Sequence record: NC_052654.1
Origin: Escherichia phage vB_EcoM-Ro121c4YLVW
DNA: 64,000 nt
Strand: one strand, 5' to 3'
Both the position numbers and the translations under genes were made by a program. Every line of letters starts with the position of its first letter. The stretch's first letter is position 1. A model generated the notes under the pieces. That model was given only the letters and a program-made list of their open reading frames with translations, searched no databases and was not told where the DNA came from. This document shows, in pieces, positions 2,199-12,699 of the stretch.

Positions 2199-2855
2199 AT
2201 GACTATTAAACATATCTCTTTTGATGTATGGAACACACTGATCACAGCAAACTCCAATTACGCAGACATGCGAGCCTGGACTATCGCAAAATATGGAGAT
2301 ATTACGGAAGTGGAAGCAAGAGCAGCTTATAAAAAGATCAAAAAGGAACTGGATAATGCAGCACTTCAAGGCAAAGCCGAGTGTGCAGCATACGCTTGGG
2401 AAAGACTTGGTTCTGAACTTGGGATAACGCCTTGGAAGTCTGCAAAGCTTCGTTTCGAGTGTGAACAGTGGTTCCTTAAGTTTCCACCACACGTAGCCGT
2501 GGATCTGCCGATGTACTTGCTGTATCTTTCGGGGCGTTATGATTTGAGTATTAAGAGCAATACCAACTTCATATCAGGGGATATCCTGCGTCGTGCTTGT
2601 AAGTTTGATAGTTGGAATTGTTTTGAGTTCACCCATTTCTCGGATGAAGCTTTACTTTGTAAACCAGATCCGCGATTCTTTGCTCGCACGCTCACGTATT
2701 CTCCGGTCCCTCTGTTAGGGCACGAAGTATTGCACGTAGGCGATAGTGAAGAATATGATGGAAAATGTGTTGACTTAGGATTTAACTTCTGTCATATTAA
2801 GAACCCTAACGACTTACTAGAGAAACTTAAAAGAGGAGAAATTGTAAATGCGTAA
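2199..2855 (+). CDS. HAD-superfamily hydrolase/phosphatase (haloacid-dehalogenase-like subfamily)
   Basis: Four HAD motifs are present: motif I FDVWNTL (compare FDxYGTL), motif II SIKSNTN, motif III CKPDPRFF, motif IV HVGDSEEYDG. Confidence 0.85.
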   Translation: MTIKHISFDVWNTLITANSNYADMRAWTIAKYGDITEVEARAAYKKIKKELDNAALQGKAECAAYAWERLGSELGITPWKSAKLRFECEQWFLKFPPHVAVDLPMYLLYLSGRYDLSIKSNTNFISGDILRRACKFDSWNCFEFTHFSDEALLCKPDPRFFARTLTYSPVPLLGHEVLHVGDSEEYDGKCVDLGFNFCHIKNPNDLLEKLKRGEIVNA

Positions 2856-3675
2856 TCAAACTCAAATTTTTGCAAATAAATTTGATGACCTGGAAACTGC
2901 TACTTTTGATATCAAAGATTATTCAAAATTGAAATTTGGTAGTAACCAAGCTGCGCGTCGTATGGGTAAAGAATTGGCACTTCAGTTTTTTGCTCAAGTG
3001 GCAATGAAACATATTGGGGAACAATTTGTTATCATCCCTTCTCCTTATAACCATGTGCATAATGCTGCAACAATGATGACAGATCATTTTATTAATTACT
3101 TTAATATGTTGCAAGCACAATATGATCAAGGTCGTTCAGCAGAACTGGATATTATTCATCGTAAAGTTAGCTATATCAACGATTATGGTTTCTTGGATAA
3201 AGCTAGTCGTAAGAAACTTATTGATGGGGATACATTCTACTGCAACAAAGAATTCTGGGGTGATAAGAAGCTTGTGTTCATTGATGATGTAAATATCACC
3301 GGAACTCATGAAGACAAACTGATTGAGATTCTTGATGAAAATCAAGTTAAAAATGATGTTTACTTCTTGTATTTTGCAAAATATGAAGGTAATCAAGCAG
3401 ATACTGAAGCTAAACTGAATTTTAACTACATCAATACACCAGAAGCGTTTGTTAAAATGATTAATGAAGAACGTGATGCACAGTGCCTTGTTCGTCCTAT
3501 TAAGTATCTTATGGGCCAAAATCACGAAGACTTCAAAATCATTCTTAGCCAATTGCCACACTACTATGTAGAGCAACTTTTCTTTGGATGTTTGGGAGAA
3601 GGTTACAACCGAATTTCAAAGTATGCTGAAAACTTTGAATTCTTGGATCGTTACACAAAACAACATATTCTGTAA
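2848..3675 (+). CDS. Phosphoribosyltransferase (type I PRTase fold, Ter-associated/ComF-like type)
   Basis: PRPP-binding loop KLVFIDDVNITGTHEDK (hydrophobic-DD-x-x-TG-T). The ORF overlaps the HAD gene by 8 nt. Confidence 0.8.
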   Translation: MRNQTQIFANKFDDLETATFDIKDYSKLKFGSNQAARRMGKELALQFFAQVAMKHIGEQFVIIPSPYNHVHNAATMMTDHFINYFNMLQAQYDQGRSAELDIIHRKVSYINDYGFLDKASRKKLIDGDTFYCNKEFWGDKKLVFIDDVNITGTHEDKLIEILDENQVKNDVYFLYFAKYEGNQADTEAKLNFNYINTPEAFVKMINEERDAQCLVRPIKYLMGQNHEDFKIILSQLPHYYVEQLFFGCLGEGYNRISKYAENFEFLDRYTKQHIL

Positions 3676-3688
3676 TAAGGAGCTAAAA

Positions 3689-4162
3689 ATGCTTAAAATG
3701 AAAACAGGTAATCTTATTGATGCCGCTAAAGCAGGAGAAGTAACTGTTATTGCTCATTGTTGCAATTGTATGTGTAATATGGGAGCAGGAATTGCTCCGC
3801 AAATTAAACGAGCATTCCCTTATGCATATGCGGCAGATTTAGACACAATGGCTGGTGATCAAAGTAAGTTAGGTTCTTTTAGTTTAGGGGTGCCAGACGA
3901 ACAATCAGACCCTTTGGTATATAATCTATACGGACAATACCGTTACGGATACAATGCTAAAGGTCGTCAGTTGGACTATGATGCACTTTACGATGCACTA
4001 ATAGCTATGGCTAATGATTTGCTTCTCCGTGACCAAAAATGTAAGATCGGCTTACCTATGATTGGCGCTGGATATGCTGGAGGTAATTGGGCTATCATCC
4101 AAGTGATGATTGAAGAAACTTTAGTAAAAACAGGTCACGATGTGACTATTTATAAACTTTAA
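3689..4162 (+). CDS. Macro-domain protein (ADP-ribose binding/processing)
   Basis: Start re-set to the ATG at 3689 (RBS aaggag, after the PRTase stop at 3675). Motifs: GNLIDA...VIAHCCNC...GAGIAPQIKRAFP and GLPMIGAGYAGGNW. Confidence 0.8.
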   Translation: MLKMKTGNLIDAAKAGEVTVIAHCCNCMCNMGAGIAPQIKRAFPYAYAADLDTMAGDQSKLGSFSLGVPDEQSDPLVYNLYGQYRYGYNAKGRQLDYDALYDALIAMANDLLLRDQKCKIGLPMIGAGYAGGNWAIIQVMIEETLVKTGHDVTIYKL

Positions 4163-4475: not shown

Positions 4476-5447
4476 ATGCAACTCGGTTTCCCAATTATTG
4501 ATGTAGTTGTTTTAGTTGGTATTTTGGCATTGTCTATTGGTATCGATTTCTTTGGTCATAAAGAGAATAAAGAAATTGGAATTAAATCTGCTTTGCTTTG
4601 GTCTGTTTTTTGGATTGCTTTAGCTTTAGGATATTACGCATTCATTTGGGTAGAGCATGGTAAAGAGTTTGCCGCACTTTTCCTAAGTGGATATGTGTTG
4701 GAAAAGAGTCTTTCTGTAGATAACCTAATGGTGTTCATGGCAATTTTTGCAAGCTTTGGAATTAAGAGCACACATCTCCAACATAAGATTTTACTTTGGG
4801 GTATTGCAGGTGCCATTGTCTTCCGAGGTGTTTTTGTTGCAGCAGGGACAGCTTTGTTTAACCTGCATTGGTCGGTCCAAGTGTTGTTCGGTCTGATTGT
4901 AGCTTGGTCTGCCGTTGCTATTATCAAAGGTGGTGACGAAGAAGATATTGATTACTCTAAACATTGGGCTGTTCGTTTAGTAGGTAAAGTTCTGCCTGTG
5001 CACAACGCACTGGATGGTGAAAAGTTCATTACCATTAAGAATGGTATTAAATATGCAACTCCTGCTCTTCTTTGTGTGTTTGTTATTGAGCTTACAGATA
5101 TTGTGTTCTCTTTTGATTCAGTTCCGGCTGTTATTGGTGTGACACAAGAACCTCTGCTAGTTTATTCTGCAATGCTGATGGCTGTTCTTGGTTTACGTGC
5201 ACTTTTCTTTGTGTTAAGTGTAGCTGTGAAATATCTGGTTCACTTAGAGAAAGCTGTTGCTGTGGTTCTGGTGTTTGTTGGTGCTAAACTTATGTATCAC
5301 CCGTTCGGTGAAACACTTCATGCCAAGTGGTCATTCCTCCCGCATGATATTTCCCCTAACGTAAGTCTGATGATTGTTCTAGGCACATTAGCTCTTGGTG
5401 TTATTGCAAGCTTTATCTTCCCTGAAAAAGAAGAAGCTGCTGTTTAA
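4476..5447 (+). CDS. TerC/Alx-family integral membrane protein
   Basis: Polytopic hydrophobic protein carrying the TerC signature GYVLEKSLSVDNLMVFMAIF, and a second half with FSFDSVPAVIGVT. Confidence 0.9.
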   Translation: MQLGFPIIDVVVLVGILALSIGIDFFGHKENKEIGIKSALLWSVFWIALALGYYAFIWVEHGKEFAALFLSGYVLEKSLSVDNLMVFMAIFASFGIKSTHLQHKILLWGIAGAIVFRGVFVAAGTALFNLHWSVQVLFGLIVAWSAVAIIKGGDEEDIDYSKHWAVRLVGKVLPVHNALDGEKFITIKNGIKYATPALLCVFVIELTDIVFSFDSVPAVIGVTQEPLLVYSAMLMAVLGLRALFFVLSVAVKYLVHLEKAVAVVLVFVGAKLMYHPFGETLHAKWSFLPHDISPNVSLMIVLGTLALGVIASFIFPEKEEAAV

Positions 5448-7072: not shown

Positions 7073-7663
7073 ATGTATACCGAGAGAGACTTGCAACTCT
7101 TGTGGTGGGAAGTGATGCAGGAAATAAAAGAAGATTTTCCTGTTTACTACAACATGTTACGTGAAGCAGGATATAAAGCTTGTGTTAGAAACAAAGTGAA
7201 TAACTCTTTCGGTTGGTGCAACTACCGAGATAAAATTGTTGTTGTAAATTGGCACTTGCATAAGAACTCTACAAGAGATATGATCGTGGATACAATGAAG
7301 CACGAAATTGCTCATGCTATTGATGGTTGTATGGGTAAGTTTAGTAGACACGGTGCTCATTGGCAAAAACTGGCAGCAGAGTTAGGGGCTAATCCTAAAG
7401 CCACTTCCAAAGAGCCGTTGAACCACGAATATAAATATGTTCTTGTTCTGGTAGATAGGTTTGCGACAAGATGTGTTAGAGGTTATAATCGTAAACCTAA
7501 TCGCATGTACCCAGGTAAGCAACCTAATATGTGGTTGAAATCAGATAAAGAAGGGACCGAAGGAAAATTATGGTTGTATAAATGGGACGATTGGGTTAAA
7601 GTAGCTAAAGAGTACGGTGTTTCACCATATATAAGAGATGCAGAAGAGGAGAATGAAGAATGA
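7073..7663 (+). CDS. SprT-like zinc metallopeptidase-domain protein
   Basis: MKHEIAHAIDG...HGAHWQKLAAELGANP contains the HExxH motif plus a downstream His, typical of SprT-like domains. Confidence 0.75.
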   Translation: MYTERDLQLLWWEVMQEIKEDFPVYYNMLREAGYKACVRNKVNNSFGWCNYRDKIVVVNWHLHKNSTRDMIVDTMKHEIAHAIDGCMGKFSRHGAHWQKLAAELGANPKATSKEPLNHEYKYVLVLVDRFATRCVRGYNRKPNRMYPGKQPNMWLKSDKEGTEGKLWLYKWDDWVKVAKEYGVSPYIRDAEEENEE

Positions 7664-8772
7664 CAAGTCCATTTTTAAAAGCAGCTACTGGCGGTCAGAA
7701 GAAGCCTGAAATGAGCGTATTTGCTGCAACAACAGATGCAAGTAAATCTGTATTCGCTCCAAGCGTGTTAGATGCCAGTCCTGTTTATGCACCAGCGGCA
7801 CCGCAAGAAGTTCCAGTTTTGCCTTCTATGACCCGACAAGAGATCGAAGAGATTGGGGCAGAGGCAGGAACAACCTTGCGTTCCTTGAATGCCGAGGTAT
7901 TAAAACATCAACGTAGTAATCAAGGCGATCAGATGAGTGAACGACTCACAGCTTTGATTAAACAGGCAAAACAACTTGATCCAAACTCTATTAAACAAAG
8001 CAAGGGTATTACTAAACTCATTAAAAAAGTTATGGGTATGAAAGAAGATCTGTTTGGGGAGTTTGATAATGTTAATAACCGTATTGAAGAGTTGGTAAAA
8101 AACCTTCAAATGGATATTCGCAAAGAAGAAGATTCCTTGGTATATCTTGAAAAGCTACATCAAGCTATTGGACAATATGCTGCAAGTTTGAACCGAGATA
8201 TGCAGCTTCTAACAGCAACCTATGAAAAAGAAGAACAAGCTTTGGCTGCTCTTCCAGAAGATGCAGTAGAACAGCGACAAGTGATCCGAGATACTTTGGA
8301 TCTTCTGGAGATTCGTATTGCAGATTTAAAAGCATTGCGCCTACTGTGTGTCCAAATGGGACCGCGTGTACAAGGTATGCAAAAAGTTTCTGCAAGCTTA
8401 ATGCGATCTGCGCGTAACATAGTAAATAATGTTATTCCTGCTTACTCTGCTAACTTCTCAATGTATATCGAGAGCTTACGTCAAATGAAAGCAGCAGAGA
8501 CGCAGAATAACGTTCTTGATGAATTTAACCTGGCAATTAAACTGGGTAGCGATCTTGCCACACAGAATCAGATAGAAGCAGCAGCACTGGCTAACCGTCA
8601 AGTGTTGGATATTGAAACTCTGCGTCACGATCAGGAAAACTTGGTTAAGATGTTGGAAGAAACTAACCGCATCAATACGGAAGCCCGTGCTGCTCGTGTT
8701 GATTATATTAATGAAGTTCAATCTTTGGAAGACGGGATGGTAGCTGCTGTGAAACGAGGGCTTGGTAAATGA
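7660..8772 (+). CDS. TelA-like (toxic anion resistance) protein
   Basis: ATGA overlap with the SprT gene. The 370-aa product is all-helical with a layout like TelA/KlaA/YceH: an N-terminal disordered region followed by long helices, e.g. LTALIKQAKQLDPN, NRIEELVKNLQ. Confidence 0.7.
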   Translation: MTSPFLKAATGGQKKPEMSVFAATTDASKSVFAPSVLDASPVYAPAAPQEVPVLPSMTRQEIEEIGAEAGTTLRSLNAEVLKHQRSNQGDQMSERLTALIKQAKQLDPNSIKQSKGITKLIKKVMGMKEDLFGEFDNVNNRIEELVKNLQMDIRKEEDSLVYLEKLHQAIGQYAASLNRDMQLLTATYEKEEQALAALPEDAVEQRQVIRDTLDLLEIRIADLKALRLLCVQMGPRVQGMQKVSASLMRSARNIVNNVIPAYSANFSMYIESLRQMKAAETQNNVLDEFNLAIKLGSDLATQNQIEAAALANRQVLDIETLRHDQENLVKMLEETNRINTEARAARVDYINEVQSLEDGMVAAVKRGLGK

Positions 8773-9139: not shown

Positions 9140-9335
9140 CTACGATAACGATCCTAATATTATCCAGTTAACCCGACAAGAACTGATCACAATCATTGAA
9201 GATGCTTTTATTGATGGTTGGAATACACAAGATAATGACTGGGGTGGACCCGAAGCTTTTCTGGAACATCATAAAGCTTATGGAGAATTTTGTGAAACCA
9301 CTGTAGCTCTTGATAATCTGAAGGAGGGTTTGTAA
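9132..9335 (+). CDS. Hypothetical small acidic protein
   Basis: RBS gaggaggaag. 67 aa. Confidence 0.5.
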   Translation: MFNYDNDPNIIQLTRQELITIIEDAFIDGWNTQDNDWGGPEAFLEHHKAYGEFCETTVALDNLKEGL

Positions 9336-9898
9336 TGGGTTGTTTTAGTTTTTTGTGCAAAGAATCGGGCAAAGCTGCCCTTTCTACTTCTTTCGACGGA
9401 TCACCTTGCTACCTCTTTCTTTTGAAAGACGGTGTTGTTATTGAAGAGATGTATGGCAACTATGATAGTTATGGTTGTGTTTTCTCTGGAAAAGAGGATG
9501 AAAATGGCGTTCGTGAACGGTTCGAATGGGCTATGGATTGGGGTAAGGTTTGTGATTTAATGCATTCCTCAAATCCAAGGGACGGTATTGCTATGGTGCT
9601 GGAAGAGTACTTTACAGGTGAAATCCCTACAGAACAATCTGACGGAGATCCTAATCAAGGTTGGGGTGATGGTGAAGAAGATCCAGATTGTTTTTTCAGC
9701 ACAGAAAAGAATAAGTTTAAACGTGTTGACAACCCTTATCACAAAGTGCATAATACTCTCATTGAAACAGAAGATGACAAGATGGAAATTGAAGAAGATG
9801 ATCCTCTTGTAACACTTCCTATAAGTGAGTTACAAAAGATCACTAAGGAAGCTTACGATTTGGGCTTCAAAATTGGTAGAGGAGGTATGCGTGTTTAG
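9335..9898 (+). CDS. Hypothetical protein
   Basis: TAATG coupling to the upstream ORF. 187 aa with an acidic middle region. Confidence 0.6.
   Translation: MGCFSFLCKESGKAALSTSFDGSPCYLFLLKDGVVIEEMYGNYDSYGCVFSGKEDENGVRERFEWAMDWGKVCDLMHSSNPRDGIAMVLEEYFTGEIPTEQSDGDPNQGWGDGEEDPDCFFSTEKNKFKRVDNPYHKVHNTLIETEDDKMEIEEDDPLVTLPISELQKITKEAYDLGFKIGRGGMRV
9726..9754 (+). promoter_or_regulatory. Internal sigma70-like promoter upstream of small paralog A
   Basis: TTGACA (9726-9731), 17 nt spacer, CATAAT (9749-9754) with TG just upstream. Confidence 0.4.
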
Positions 9899-10169
9899 AT
9901 TCAATATTCAAGAAGAAAAAAGTCAGGATTTACCTATTGCTTTCGAAGATCTTGACGTAGGGGCCACATTCATGTATTATGATGCCTATGAAGACGCAGG
10001 GTTGGATACCTACCGTAACTTGGTGTTCATTAAAAATTCCACAAACAGTGCGATTTGTATTAATGGATCACTAGCACAACGAGGCTATACTCATTGCATC
10101 CCACCAGATACAAATATGGTGGAAGTAGATTTAGAAGTTACCAATATTACACTTAAGAAGGAGAAATAA
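9891..10169 (+). CDS. Small beta-rich protein, paralog A (precedes the vWA gene)
   Basis: Start re-set to the GTG at 9891, 5 nt after ggagg. It aligns with the 11191-11460 product: F.I.E.K...DLDVG.TF.Y..A....GLD....V..K ... .VE.L.VT.ITLK. Confidence 0.6.
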   Translation: MFRFNIQEEKSQDLPIAFEDLDVGATFMYYDAYEDAGLDTYRNLVFIKNSTNSAICINGSLAQRGYTHCIPPDTNMVEVDLEVTNITLKKEK

Positions 10170-10170
10170 T

Positions 10171-10965
10171 ATGTCCGAGAAAATCAGCCTGAAAAAACGT
10201 CAAGAAAACCTTGCTTTCTCTCTGAAAAAGAATAAGAACCTGAATGAAGGTAAGATTGTTCTTCGTGTAGCATGTGCTCTAGATATTTCTGGTAGTATGC
10301 ATGGTCTATATTCTAGTGGGGTAGTGAGTGATTTTGTAGGTAAACTGCTTCCTTTTGGTATGCTGTTCGACGATAATCAACAAATTGATATGTGGGCCTT
10401 CAATACGAGTTCCCAAGAGCTTACTCCAGCAACAGCAGACGTTTACGATGACTATGTTGGTAAATGTATGCGTAATGTTCGTATCGGAGGTGGAACAAAT
10501 TACGCCCCTGTAATGGCAGATATCTACGATGAGTATTTTGGCACTGTTACCAAATATATTACCACTAAACAAGTGGTACAAGAGGAGGCTCCAAAGAAAG
10601 GCTTCTTTAATCGTCTGCTTGGTAAAACTGAAACAGTGTCTGTAGAGCGTGAAAAAGTTGTAGCTGTATCTGAACCAGGTGCTGACGTTACCCCTGGTGT
10701 TGTATTCTTCCAGACGGATGGTGAGAATGGTGATCCTAGTGCTGTTCGTCGTCTTATTGAAGAGAATAAGAATAAACCTATTTATTGGTTCATGGTTGGC
10801 GTTGGTAATGAGAAGTTTGGCTTCCTGAAAGAACTGGCAAATGCTTATGATAATGTTGGTTTTATTGGCATTAAAGATTTAGACTTGACAGATTCAGAGC
10901 TTTATGACAAACTCTTATCTGAAGAGTTCGGAGAGTGGGTTGTTAAAGTAGGTGCTAAAAAATGA
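10171..10965 (+). CDS. von Willebrand factor A domain protein (TerF-C-terminal-type vWA)
   Basis: MIDAS motif ACALDISGSM, downstream GGTNY, and the FFQTDGENGD motif. The N-terminus EKISLKKRQENLAFSLKK mimics the first strand of TerD domains. Confidence 0.8.
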   Translation: MSEKISLKKRQENLAFSLKKNKNLNEGKIVLRVACALDISGSMHGLYSSGVVSDFVGKLLPFGMLFDDNQQIDMWAFNTSSQELTPATADVYDDYVGKCMRNVRIGGGTNYAPVMADIYDEYFGTVTKYITTKQVVQEEAPKKGFFNRLLGKTETVSVEREKVVAVSEPGADVTPGVVFFQTDGENGDPSAVRRLIEENKNKPIYWFMVGVGNEKFGFLKELANAYDNVGFIGIKDLDLTDSELYDKLLSEEFGEWVVKVGAKK

Positions 10966-11210
10966 TCGACGAGCTTGCCTCTCAAGTCGTAGAAAATTAT
11001 TGGCGCGAGAGAGAAGCTTTCATTATGCGCAGTCTCAAAGAGTATTTCATTGGGACTGTGCGAATGGAAGATATTGTAAGTAGAGTAGAGATTCATGTAT
11101 GGCCCGATTATGAAGAATGGGTTGACAAAGAAAATGAAAATGCTATAATTCTTCGTATATACAAACCGGAGATAACATTAGGAGGAAGAAGTGTTAAACT
11201 TCGAAATTGA
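10962..11210 (+). CDS. Hypothetical protein
   Basis: ATGA overlap with the vWA stop. 82 aa. Confidence 0.5.
   Translation: MIDELASQVVENYWREREAFIMRSLKEYFIGTVRMEDIVSRVEIHVWPDYEEWVDKENENAIILRIYKPEITLGGRSVKLRN
11122..11149 (+). promoter_or_regulatory. Internal sigma70-like promoter upstream of small paralog B and TerD
   Basis: TTGACA (11122-11127), 16 nt spacer, extended -10 TGcTATAAT (11141-11149). Confidence 0.5.
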
Positions 11211-11460
11211 TGAGCAAAAAGTAAATAAACGATGCCTTACCATTAAAGATTTGGATGTAGGAGATACTTTCGTCTATGAAAATGCATTTGACGAAAATGG
11301 TTTAGACCTTAGTGAAATCATTGTTTATTTAAAAGTAGATGATGGGGAAAATGATTATTCTGCTGTAGAACTAAACCATCATGCACAATTAGTATCAATC
11401 CAAAACACATCTAAGCTTTTGGAAGTAGAATTGACTGTAACTGGTATTACACTTAAATAA
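11191..11460 (+). CDS. Small beta-rich protein, paralog B (precedes the TerD gene)
   Basis: GTG start after ggaggaag. Paralogous to 9891-10169. Confidence 0.6.
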   Translation: MLNFEIDEQKVNKRCLTIKDLDVGDTFVYENAFDENGLDLSEIIVYLKVDDGENDYSAVELNHHAQLVSIQNTSKLLEVELTVTGITLK

Positions 11461-11475
11461 TAGAGGAGACAAAAG

Positions 11476-12078
11476 ATGACTGATAAAATTTCCCTGAAAA
11501 AAGGCTCTAGCGAAAAAATTTCCCTGAAGAAAGTTGCTCCGGCTCTGAAAGAACTGCGCCTGGAATTCTCTTGGAAATCTGATTCTAAACTGGATCTGGA
11601 TGTAAGTGCACTGGTTTGTCGTCATAATGCCGCTGGCAATCCTGAAATGCTGTCCGCACGTCATCTGGTTTGCTATGCTAACAAGTTTGATCCTGAACGT
11701 TCTACCTTCGCTGGTGACGATGTTCGTGATGGGACTGGCAGCATGGAGCAGATTGATATTACTCTGGCTAAAATCTCTCCTGATGCACAAGAGATTGCCT
11801 TTGTTCTGACCATTGATGATGATACAGGTCTGAAACGTTTTGGTCATGCTTCTGAAGGTATGCTTAAAATCTTCGACTCCGAGCGTAATGTGGAAATTCT
11901 GGATTTTGACTTCCTGGCTCCTGAAGTAGCTGGCAACACAATCTGCCACGTGGCTTCCCTGGTTCGTGAAGATGGAGAATGGAAGCTGAAAGCATATGGT
12001 GTAGGTAAAGCTGGTCTGGATATTTGCGATGTGGTGATGGCCTTCGGTGGTAAAAAAGAATGGTATGAATGTCCATAA
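11476..12078 (+). CDS. TerD-domain protein (tellurium-resistance TerD family)
   Basis: DKISLKKGSSEKISLKKVAP...LDLDVSALVC and the Ca-binding-type loop FAGDDVRDGTGSMEQIDITL match E. coli TerD (VSLSKGGNVSLSK...FDLDASAF...GDNRTGEGDGDDE). 18 of 19 Leu codons are CTG. Confidence 0.9.
   Translation: MTDKISLKKGSSEKISLKKVAPALKELRLEFSWKSDSKLDLDVSALVCRHNAAGNPEMLSARHLVCYANKFDPERSTFAGDDVRDGTGSMEQIDITLAKISPDAQEIAFVLTIDDDTGLKRFGHASEGMLKIFDSERNVEILDFDFLAPEVAGNTICHVASLVREDGEWKLKAYGVGKAGLDICDVVMAFGGKKEWYECP
11485..11528 (+). repeat. 14-nt perfect direct repeat (aaaatttccctgaa) 30 nt apart, encoding the duplicated KISLKK strand
   Basis: Copies at 11485-11498 and 11515-11528, read directly from the sequence. 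Confidence 0.9.
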
Positions 12079-12096
12079 TAATTAACAAATGATTTT

Positions 12097-12116
12097 GAGG
12101 GGGAGAAATCCCCCTC
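12097..12116 (+). terminator. Stem-loop terminator after the TerD gene
   Basis: GAGGGGGA-gaaa-TCCCCCTC, with only a short T run after it. Confidence 0.55.
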
Positions 12117-12145
12117 TTGCAATAAAGCCTCTATCGTGTTATACT
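12117..12145 (+). promoter_or_regulatory. Sigma70-like promoter for the hydrolase gene
   Basis: TTGCAA (12117-12122), 17 nt spacer, TGtTATACT (extended -10, 12137-12145). Confidence 0.5.
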
Positions 12146-12177
12146 AGAAGTTCGTTAACTTAAAAAGGAGGCAAAAT

Positions 12178-12699
12178 TTGCTGATAAAAAACTTTGTAAC
12201 AGTTGCGTTACTATCCTTAACTGCTTTTACATTTACACCTGTTGTGGCGAAAGCCGAAGCTGCAAACGTAAAAACCGCTAAAGTAGTTCACAAATGTACA
12301 AAGCAATATAATGATAAAATTCTATTAGCTTGTGCAATTTACGCAGAAGGTCGCGGTCTGGGTAAAAAAGGAATGAATGCCGTTGGGAATGTGGTAATCA
12401 ACAGAAGAAATGATGCCTACTTCCCTAACACAGTCAAGGGAGTCTTGTTCCAGAAAGGGCAATTCTCATATGCGAAAACTTTTAACGTGACAGAGAAAGA
12501 TAAGTGGCAGGAAGCAAAAGCAATAGCGGAGCGTTTACTTTATTTAGAGAAACATTTTCCTGAATTGCGGTCTGTTTTAGATGTTACTAAAGGTGCTCTA
12601 TACTTCAAGAAACGGAATATAAGGACACACTGGGAGCGTGATATGCGTCTTGTTTATCGAGATAAAGTGCATGGTTTCTATCTACCAAAGGGGAGTTAA
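12178..12699 (+). CDS. Secreted cell-wall hydrolase, SleB-like (candidate endolysin)
   Basis: TTG start after aaggagg. N-terminal signal or SAR-like segment LIKNFVTVALLSLTAFTFTPVVAKAEA. Core motifs: CAIYAEGRGLG..GMNAVGNVVINRRND.YFPNTVKGV..QKGQFSY. Confidence 0.75.
   Translation: MLIKNFVTVALLSLTAFTFTPVVAKAEAANVKTAKVVHKCTKQYNDKILLACAIYAEGRGLGKKGMNAVGNVVINRRNDAYFPNTVKGVLFQKGQFSYAKTFNVTEKDKWQEAKAIAERLLYLEKHFPELRSVLDVTKGALYFKKRNIRTHWERDMRLVYRDKVHGFYLPKGS

Follow-up and report, generated by a model that had tools for sequence, protein, structure and literature searches.

Why a phage should encode two versions of one small protein, the first directly ahead of a vWA gene and the second directly ahead of a TerD gene, is the question raised by a locus of Escherichia phage vB_EcoM-Ro121c4YLVW, of which a stretch of 64,000 nucleotides from sequence record NC_052654.1 was analysed (the window; coordinates are positions in it, and all features described lie on the + strand). 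The mechanism of Ter systems, with their TerD, TerF-type vWA, TelA and TerC proteins, is poorly understood despite their spread in bacteria, plasmids and virulent phages; in TerF of the plasmid terZABCDEF operon, a TerD domain is fused to a vWA domain. An earlier note, made from the letters of the DNA, had described the locus as a duplicated cassette of promoter, small gene and large gene, and had derived it from an ancestral unit of small protein and TerF-like (TerD-vWA) protein, duplicated whole, one copy of which later lost TerD and the other vWA. The evidence set out below points instead to an old duplication that took in only the small gene and, on balance, the small proteins are probably a lineage-specific accessory of the vWA-TerD pair, which may act as an adaptor, an assembly factor or a regulator.

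The elements of the cassette (two promoter-like sites, two GTG-initiated open reading frames (ORFs), the vWA gene and the TerD gene) all lie where the earlier note had placed them. Copy 1 of the small protein (small1, pre-vWA type, 92 amino acids, 9891-10169) precedes the gene of a stand-alone vWA-TerF-like protein of 264 amino acids (10171-10965), and copy 2 (small2, pre-TerD type, 89 amino acids, 11191-11460) precedes that of a TerD-domain protein of 200 amino acids (11476-12078); an 82-amino-acid ORF (10962-11210; phrog_22387, a family of unknown function) lies between the vWA gene and small2. Both small ORFs have an AGGAGG ribosome-binding site ahead of them and are annotated at identical positions in phage ESCO13. 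The reading frame of small1 is open to an upstream GTG at 9825, and all homologues begin, with M(F/L)xF, at the place that corresponds to 9891; the start codon of small2 is GTG in this phage and ATG in its relatives. The vWA start codon (10171) follows the small1 stop after 1 nucleotide, with the ribosome-binding site of the vWA gene inside small1.

That the two small ORFs are paralogues, as had been claimed from shared motifs, is borne out by BLASTP (E = 2e-14, 34% identity over the full length) and by a Smith-Waterman score of 123 against 26 ± 4.5 in 5000 shuffles, none of which reaches it (z = 21). Both also match phrog_11278 from end to end (copy 1, E = 4.2e-51, residues 1-92 on 1-92; copy 2, E = 7e-45, residues 1-89 on 1-89) and are members of PHROG 11278, whose entry in PHROGs carries no function, fold or context; what is added to it here is the link to vWA and TerD, the existence of two position-specific subtypes and a fold prediction. 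The statement that the small proteins belong to no characterised family also holds, as no significant match was found in Pfam, NCBIfam or PADLOC, PHROGs lists them as unknown, and the lone sub-threshold Pfam match is to DUF5006. No study dealing with these small genes came up in literature searches. The 14 members of the family that were compared are all acidic, their net charges ranging from -2 to -11.

The small family was found only in Stephanstirmvirinae phages and in related uncultured phages. It is present in 125 isolated-phage records, those inspected being Stephanstirmvirinae, and among the records listed Phapecoctavirus phages carry two copies, and Justusliebigvirus (phi92-like) phages and other relatives one. 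A profile search of 1.84 billion representative proteins returned 16 small proteins of 54-93 amino acids, besides matches to repeat proteins that are discussed with the fold; a word-indexed search returned close relatives only, and a search of IMG/VR with copy 2 or with a distant member (L009; L numbers are our labels for related records) returned no relatives.

Three gene layouts can be distinguished. In phi92 (gp174-gp173-gp172), Klebsiella phage 05F01, L010 and L011 the order is small-vWA-TerD; in this phage and in the divergent metagenomic relatives L004, L005 and L006 it is small-vWA-81aa-small-TerD, the ORF of 82 amino acids holding the 81aa place and being restricted to this two-copy layout; and in the most distant members (L007, L008, L009 and L012) it is vWA-small-TerD. 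This last, middle type is known only from metagenomes, since tblastn of a middle-type protein against isolated phages gave a single marginal match. The contig of L013 is too short for complete flanking genes. Co-occurrence with vWA and TerD genes, which the earlier note had named as a check on its proposal, is found throughout: vWA, TerD or both adjoin the small gene in all 13 contexts that were read, and this adjacency holds across about 23-40% protein identity. The small gene is co-oriented with the adjoining vWA or TerD gene, the junctions range from a 4-nucleotide overlap to about 35 nucleotides, and in L008 the vWA stop overlaps the start of the small gene. No hidden copies of the small family were found among the ORFs flanking vWA and TerD in L002, L007, L009, L012, L014 and L015.

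These layouts bear directly on the duplicated and differentially truncated TerF-like unit of the earlier note, which they make very improbable. The one-copy relatives (phi92, 05F01, L007-L009 and L012) have intact vWA and TerD genes, with the small gene before or between them; as these phages keep vWA and TerD side by side, the two genes are therefore not two halves of a duplicated unit. The proposal drew its appeal from the start (S/T)(E/D)KISLKK common to the two large proteins, which is indeed present, the first nine residues being nearly identical, and at times identical, in the vWA and TerD proteins of one phage; KISLKK would then be a relic of the truncated ancestor. However, the TerD start, M..K(I/V)SLKK(G/S)..K(I/V)SLKK, is native to every lineage, including the one-copy phages as well as L014 and L015, which have no small protein of this family, and it belongs to the Pfam TerD model, which the TerD protein matches from residue 5 (PF02342; E = 3.2e-28; score 98.9 bits, cut-off 25.3; residues 5-179 aligned to positions 3-177 of the 187 in the profile).

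The vWA protein, for its part, belongs to the same Pfam family as TerF (PF10138, vWA-TerF-like, E = 1.6e-37, 130.1 bits against a cut-off of 29.4), with DISGSM, the metal-ion-dependent adhesion site (MIDAS) motif, at residue 38; its basic N-terminal leader reads MSEKISLKKRQENLAFSLKK. In all vWA-TerF-like proteins that were checked, a leader of this kind, hydrophobic-x-L-x-K(R/K) and then x-L-x-K, precedes the MIDAS by about 30-37 residues. Among them are a protein from Neobacillus and four TerD-vWA fusions from bacteria (P0100-P0103, distant homologues), where the leader comes after an entire TerD domain. Unlike TerF, the vWA protein of this phage has no TerD domain (no TerD Pfam match at E up to 0.1), its KISLKK leader being part of the vWA family rather than a truncated TerD, and every phage lineage examined encodes vWA and TerD in two separate genes. 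No TerD remnant specific to this lineage was found N-terminal to the vWA domain. When the profiles of vWA leader and TerD N-terminus are compared by hhalign, there is a weak positive signal (E = 3.8e-4, probability 36%, 40 columns), which speaks for the truncated unit as far as it goes; the resemblance is family-wide and of uncertain meaning, and no feature specific to this locus.

The DNA itself retains co-linear similarity between the two halves of the locus at a constant offset of 1300-1305 nucleotides, comprising the 3′ end of the small genes (37 nucleotides, 76%) and the ribosome-binding site with the ATG and KISLKK codons (39 nucleotides, 77%), as a larger duplication would have left it. 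Such residual similarity needs no larger duplication: the 3′ ends come from paralogous genes, the Shine-Dalgarno sequence is the consensus one and the encoded peptides are the same. The ORFs that precede small1 and small2, of 187 and 82 amino acids, were also considered as part of the duplication and were rejected as not homologous (BLASTP E = 0.055, hhalign probability 1%). The truncated-unit origin is thus contradicted by the one-copy layouts, the native TerD start, the family-wide leader and the non-homologous upstream ORFs, and the small ORF is the only one detectably duplicated.

How old this duplication is can be read from a neighbour-joining tree of the small-protein copies with bootstrap support, which groups them by position: the pre-vWA core is recovered at 87%, the pre-TerD copies at 70% and the middle type at 88%. 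In particular, small2 falls together with its pre-TerD counterparts in L004 and L005 (bootstrap 70%); the copies 2 of L004-L006 are only 46-48% identical to it. As the copies cluster by position, the duplication is old and predates these lineages. The phi92 copy is sister to copy 1 of this phage (96%) and is nested among two-copy lineages, which suggests that phi92 lost its second copy; the 81-amino-acid ORF was probably lost from phi92-like phages together with it.

The fold of the small protein was modelled with AlphaFold2 (AF2), and the outcome depended on the alignment: with 9 close sequences the predicted local distance difference test score (pLDDT) was 39, and 19 diverse sequences that included distant homologues were needed to reach a pLDDT of 85.8, with a predicted template modelling score (pTM) of 0.73. 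The family is thereby predicted to be an SH3-like small beta-barrel. With the barrels of FeoA, the C-terminal domain of DtxR/IdeR, HspQ/YccV, KOW and Tudor the small protein shares 4-19% identity, without sequence similarity, and it differs from SH3-like adaptor domains in an extra helix at residues 30-36. Foldseek of the model against the PDB returned nothing significant, a profile search against PDB sequences gave chance-level matches only (E >= 0.13), and a structure search of BFVD found only the paralogue and unnamed small phage proteins.

The matches of the family profile to giant repeat proteins, of up to 22 stretches per protein and centred on the GDTFxY region, could be taken to mean that the small protein is a beta-sandwich of the repeat type, Ig-like or DUF11-like, and kin to giant bacterial surface proteins; six shorter repeat proteins that were scanned (485-1258 amino acids) indeed carry DUF11, DUF7507 or HYR repeats. 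Yet the individual matches are short stretches of 16-56 residues that add up over many repeats, Pfam shows no DUF11 match in the small proteins at E up to 0.1, and the confident AF2 model fits SH3-like barrels rather than sandwiches. Since there is no DUF11 match and the predicted structure is not a sandwich, the repeat-protein matches are read as an accumulation of short motifs, and kinship with the surface proteins is considered highly unlikely.

A sigma-70 promoter, TTGACA-16-TGcTATAAT (11122-11149; 12/12 with an extended -10), lies inside the 82-amino-acid ORF, about 35 nucleotides before the ribosome-binding site of small2, and a sigma-70-like site, TTGACA-17-CATAAT (9726-9754; 11/12), lies inside the gene of the 187-amino-acid protein (9335-9898), 137 nucleotides upstream of small1; they are the two best sigma-70 matches in 10 kb scanned. 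The former has no equal in the 64 kb, where no other match is perfect (0.13 expected by chance; at least one in 13 of 100 shuffles), and it is exact in L004, L005 and L006 though the overlapping codon varies between GTT, ATT and CTT (V, I and L). Its -10 element ends at 11149, so that a transcript would begin about 35 nucleotides before the small2 start. One-copy phages have 10/12 promoter sites ahead of TerD. One-mismatch sites at 17-nucleotide spacing number 4 in the window against 0.8 expected. The site at 9726 is kept in phi92 and L004 and is absent in L005, 05F01 and L010; its function is less certain, because it lies in an invariant peptide, RVDNPYHKVHN, where coding constraint is inseparable from promoter constraint, and because some relatives lack it.

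At the other end of the putative small2-TerD unit, a GC-rich hairpin (12097-12116; -17.2 kcal/mol, z = -3.1) is found 18 nucleotides beyond the stop codon of TerD. The transcription unit may end at this hairpin, but it has no U tract and a terminator scan did not call it. Directly behind the hairpin, and overlapping it, comes a further promoter-like site, TTGCAA-17-TATACT with a TG that extends its -10, so that hairpin and site together span 12097-12145; they lie ahead of the gene of a cell-wall hydrolase (12178-12699; Pfam). The TerD gene has an extreme codon bias of the kind seen in highly expressed E. coli genes, with CTG for 18 of 19 Leu and CGT or CGC for all 8 Arg, and a preferred-codon fraction of 0.65 against 0.34-0.49 in 22 neighbouring genes, whereas none of the 12 Leu codons of small2, which would share the transcript, is CTG. 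The TerD codon bias and the perfect promoter together suggest abundant TerD production.

What the small proteins do has to be approached from this combination of context, expression signals and fold. An accessory role is proposed because, wherever its context was read, the small gene adjoins vWA or TerD and is co-oriented with it, and among the readings considered it is the best supported one, by a synteny that is mobile and always adjacent, by tight gene coupling and by a predicted fold of the adaptor type. After the old duplication of the small gene alone in Phapecoctavirus-type phages, two position-specific copies would have been maintained, small1 being translationally coupled to the vWA gene and small2 co-transcribed with TerD from its own promoter, which would be strong and of the host type if active as its sequence implies. 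A division of labour between the two copies may have followed, and each may associate physically with vWA and/or TerD. The suggestion of the earlier note that each small protein might be the dedicated partner of the protein encoded downstream would agree with the position-wise clustering of the copies; the one-copy layouts suggest that the associate would be the vWA-TerD pair as a whole, rather than one of the two genes.

The main rival explanation is that the small genes are functionally unrelated filler or host-takeover genes sitting in permissive slots around vWA and TerD, with a synteny that reflects nothing other than shared ancestry. The small family is confined to one phage lineage and has no functional annotation in the databases scanned, and the same slots hold other small ORFs, namely the 82-amino-acid ORF and, in L014 and L015, an unrelated family of 110-116 amino acids, all of which would suit such a view. 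However, adjacency survives down to about 23-30% identity while the gene changes place, standing ahead of vWA in some phages and separating vWA from TerD in others, and passive inheritance would be expected to break it; the small-gene junctions are, moreover, tight or overlapping. The unrelated family itself also shifts between the same two slots, which looks like a functional slot. It comprises a protein of 110 amino acids encoded upstream of vWA (L014:3653-3985) and one of 116 amino acids encoded between vWA and TerD (L015:4744-5094), which are homologous to each other (E = 5e-10) and have neither a Pfam match nor a match to a phrog_11278-type profile. Although its presence in these slots can be read either way, it is taken as mild support for a functional slot, and the filler-gene explanation is judged unlikely, while still deserving serious consideration.

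Several observations weigh against the accessory role as proposed. Of 208 phage records with a vWA-TerF-like gene, at least 83 gave no match in tblastn with the small protein, records of Caulobacter, Pseudomonas, Rhizobium and Brevundimonas phages among them, and the profile search, in which the origins of most matches were left unchecked, identified no relative in a bacterial genome. Being missing from many vWA phages, the small family is therefore a lineage-specific addition and no general requirement of vWA or TerD function. The deep nodes of the tree have bootstrap values of 7-52%, which makes the order of duplication and loss uncertain. Finally, small2 has a GTG start and unbiased codons while TerD is strongly codon-optimised, a difference that argues against equimolar production and against a 1:1 structural partnership with TerD.

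A more specific form of the accessory role can be envisaged, in which the acidic SH3-like barrels bind the basic leader (MSEKISLKK...SLKK) common to vWA-TerF-like and TerD proteins and thereby control the timing and location of a sub-membrane TerD-vWA-TelA assembly during infection, with one adaptor per client after the duplication. Hints in this direction are the acidity of the family, the charge of +5 of each of the vWA and TerD leaders, the leader being shared, and the shift of both small families between the same two slots. If it were so, the family of 110-116 amino acids would meet the same need in other phages (L014, L015) from the same slots; for the time being, this elaboration is best regarded as speculative and rather improbable.

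The region of the small genes forms the distal portion of a Ter stress module carried by the phage. Upstream of it lie, in order, genes for a HAD hydrolase (2199-2855; weak profile match), PRTase_3 (2848-3675; E = 6e-42), a macro domain protein (3584-4162; E = 1e-4), TerC (4476-5447; E = 7.5e-40), a SprT-like protein (7073-7663; Pfam) and TelA (7660-8772; E = 3.2e-33). With TerC, TelA, TerD and vWA co-located with PRTase and HAD, this is a Ter system by the gene-neighbourhood definition; PADLOC models of known anti-phage defence components gave no match for the small proteins, vWA, TerD, TelA or TerC. The macro protein, which has a weak DarG-like match (E = 2e-8), is encoded directly 3′ of the Ter-type PRTase_3 and HAD genes, a position that suggests chemistry of ADP-ribose or of nucleotide derivatives in the phage Ter module.

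The 187-amino-acid protein encoded upstream of small1 has no Pfam or PHROG family, a net charge of -20 and the N-terminus MGCFSFLC. It is kept in phi92 (gp175) and L004, and an unrelated-looking protein of 231-239 amino acids is found instead in 05F01 and L010.

Over the 2.9 kb around the small genes, identity is 99.5% with Escherichia phage nieznany and about 99% with some 60 further phAPEC8-like phages (genus Phapecoctavirus, subfamily Stephanstirmvirinae). Identity of about 99% to E. coli Phapecoctavirus over 9300-12200 is also seen in Campylobacter phage B15, Acinetobacter phage vB_AbaM_ABPW7 and Klebsiella phage ZCKP1, and Campylobacter phage C3 has a phi92-type small protein with 63% identity to copy 1. 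The host labels of these four GenBank records (MG065650, MG065656, OP562383 and NC_047994) look doubtful, or else the host range looks unusually broad.

Subsets of Ter genes in jumbo and other virulent phages have been described, with a proposed role in superinfection competition or in the membrane stress response (PMC7824862; PMC8386662). The systems treated there comprise TerC, TelA, TerF-type vWA and TerD with PRTase and HAD; this phage has PRTase_3, HAD, macro, TerC, TelA, vWA-TerF-like and TerD genes in one co-oriented block, and the role proposed for such systems would apply to its module too. The relevant passages of these papers mention neither a small SH3-like accessory gene nor its duplication, and the Ter versions of Caulobacter, Pseudomonas and Rhizobium phages are without the small family. 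The finding is an incremental one, as the family is restricted to one lineage and already catalogued as unknown, and what is new is its context, its fold assignment and a corrected evolutionary story. A strictly linked accessory of about 90 amino acids in tractable E. coli phages such as phAPEC8 and phi92 would, at the same time, provide a handle on vWA-TerD function.

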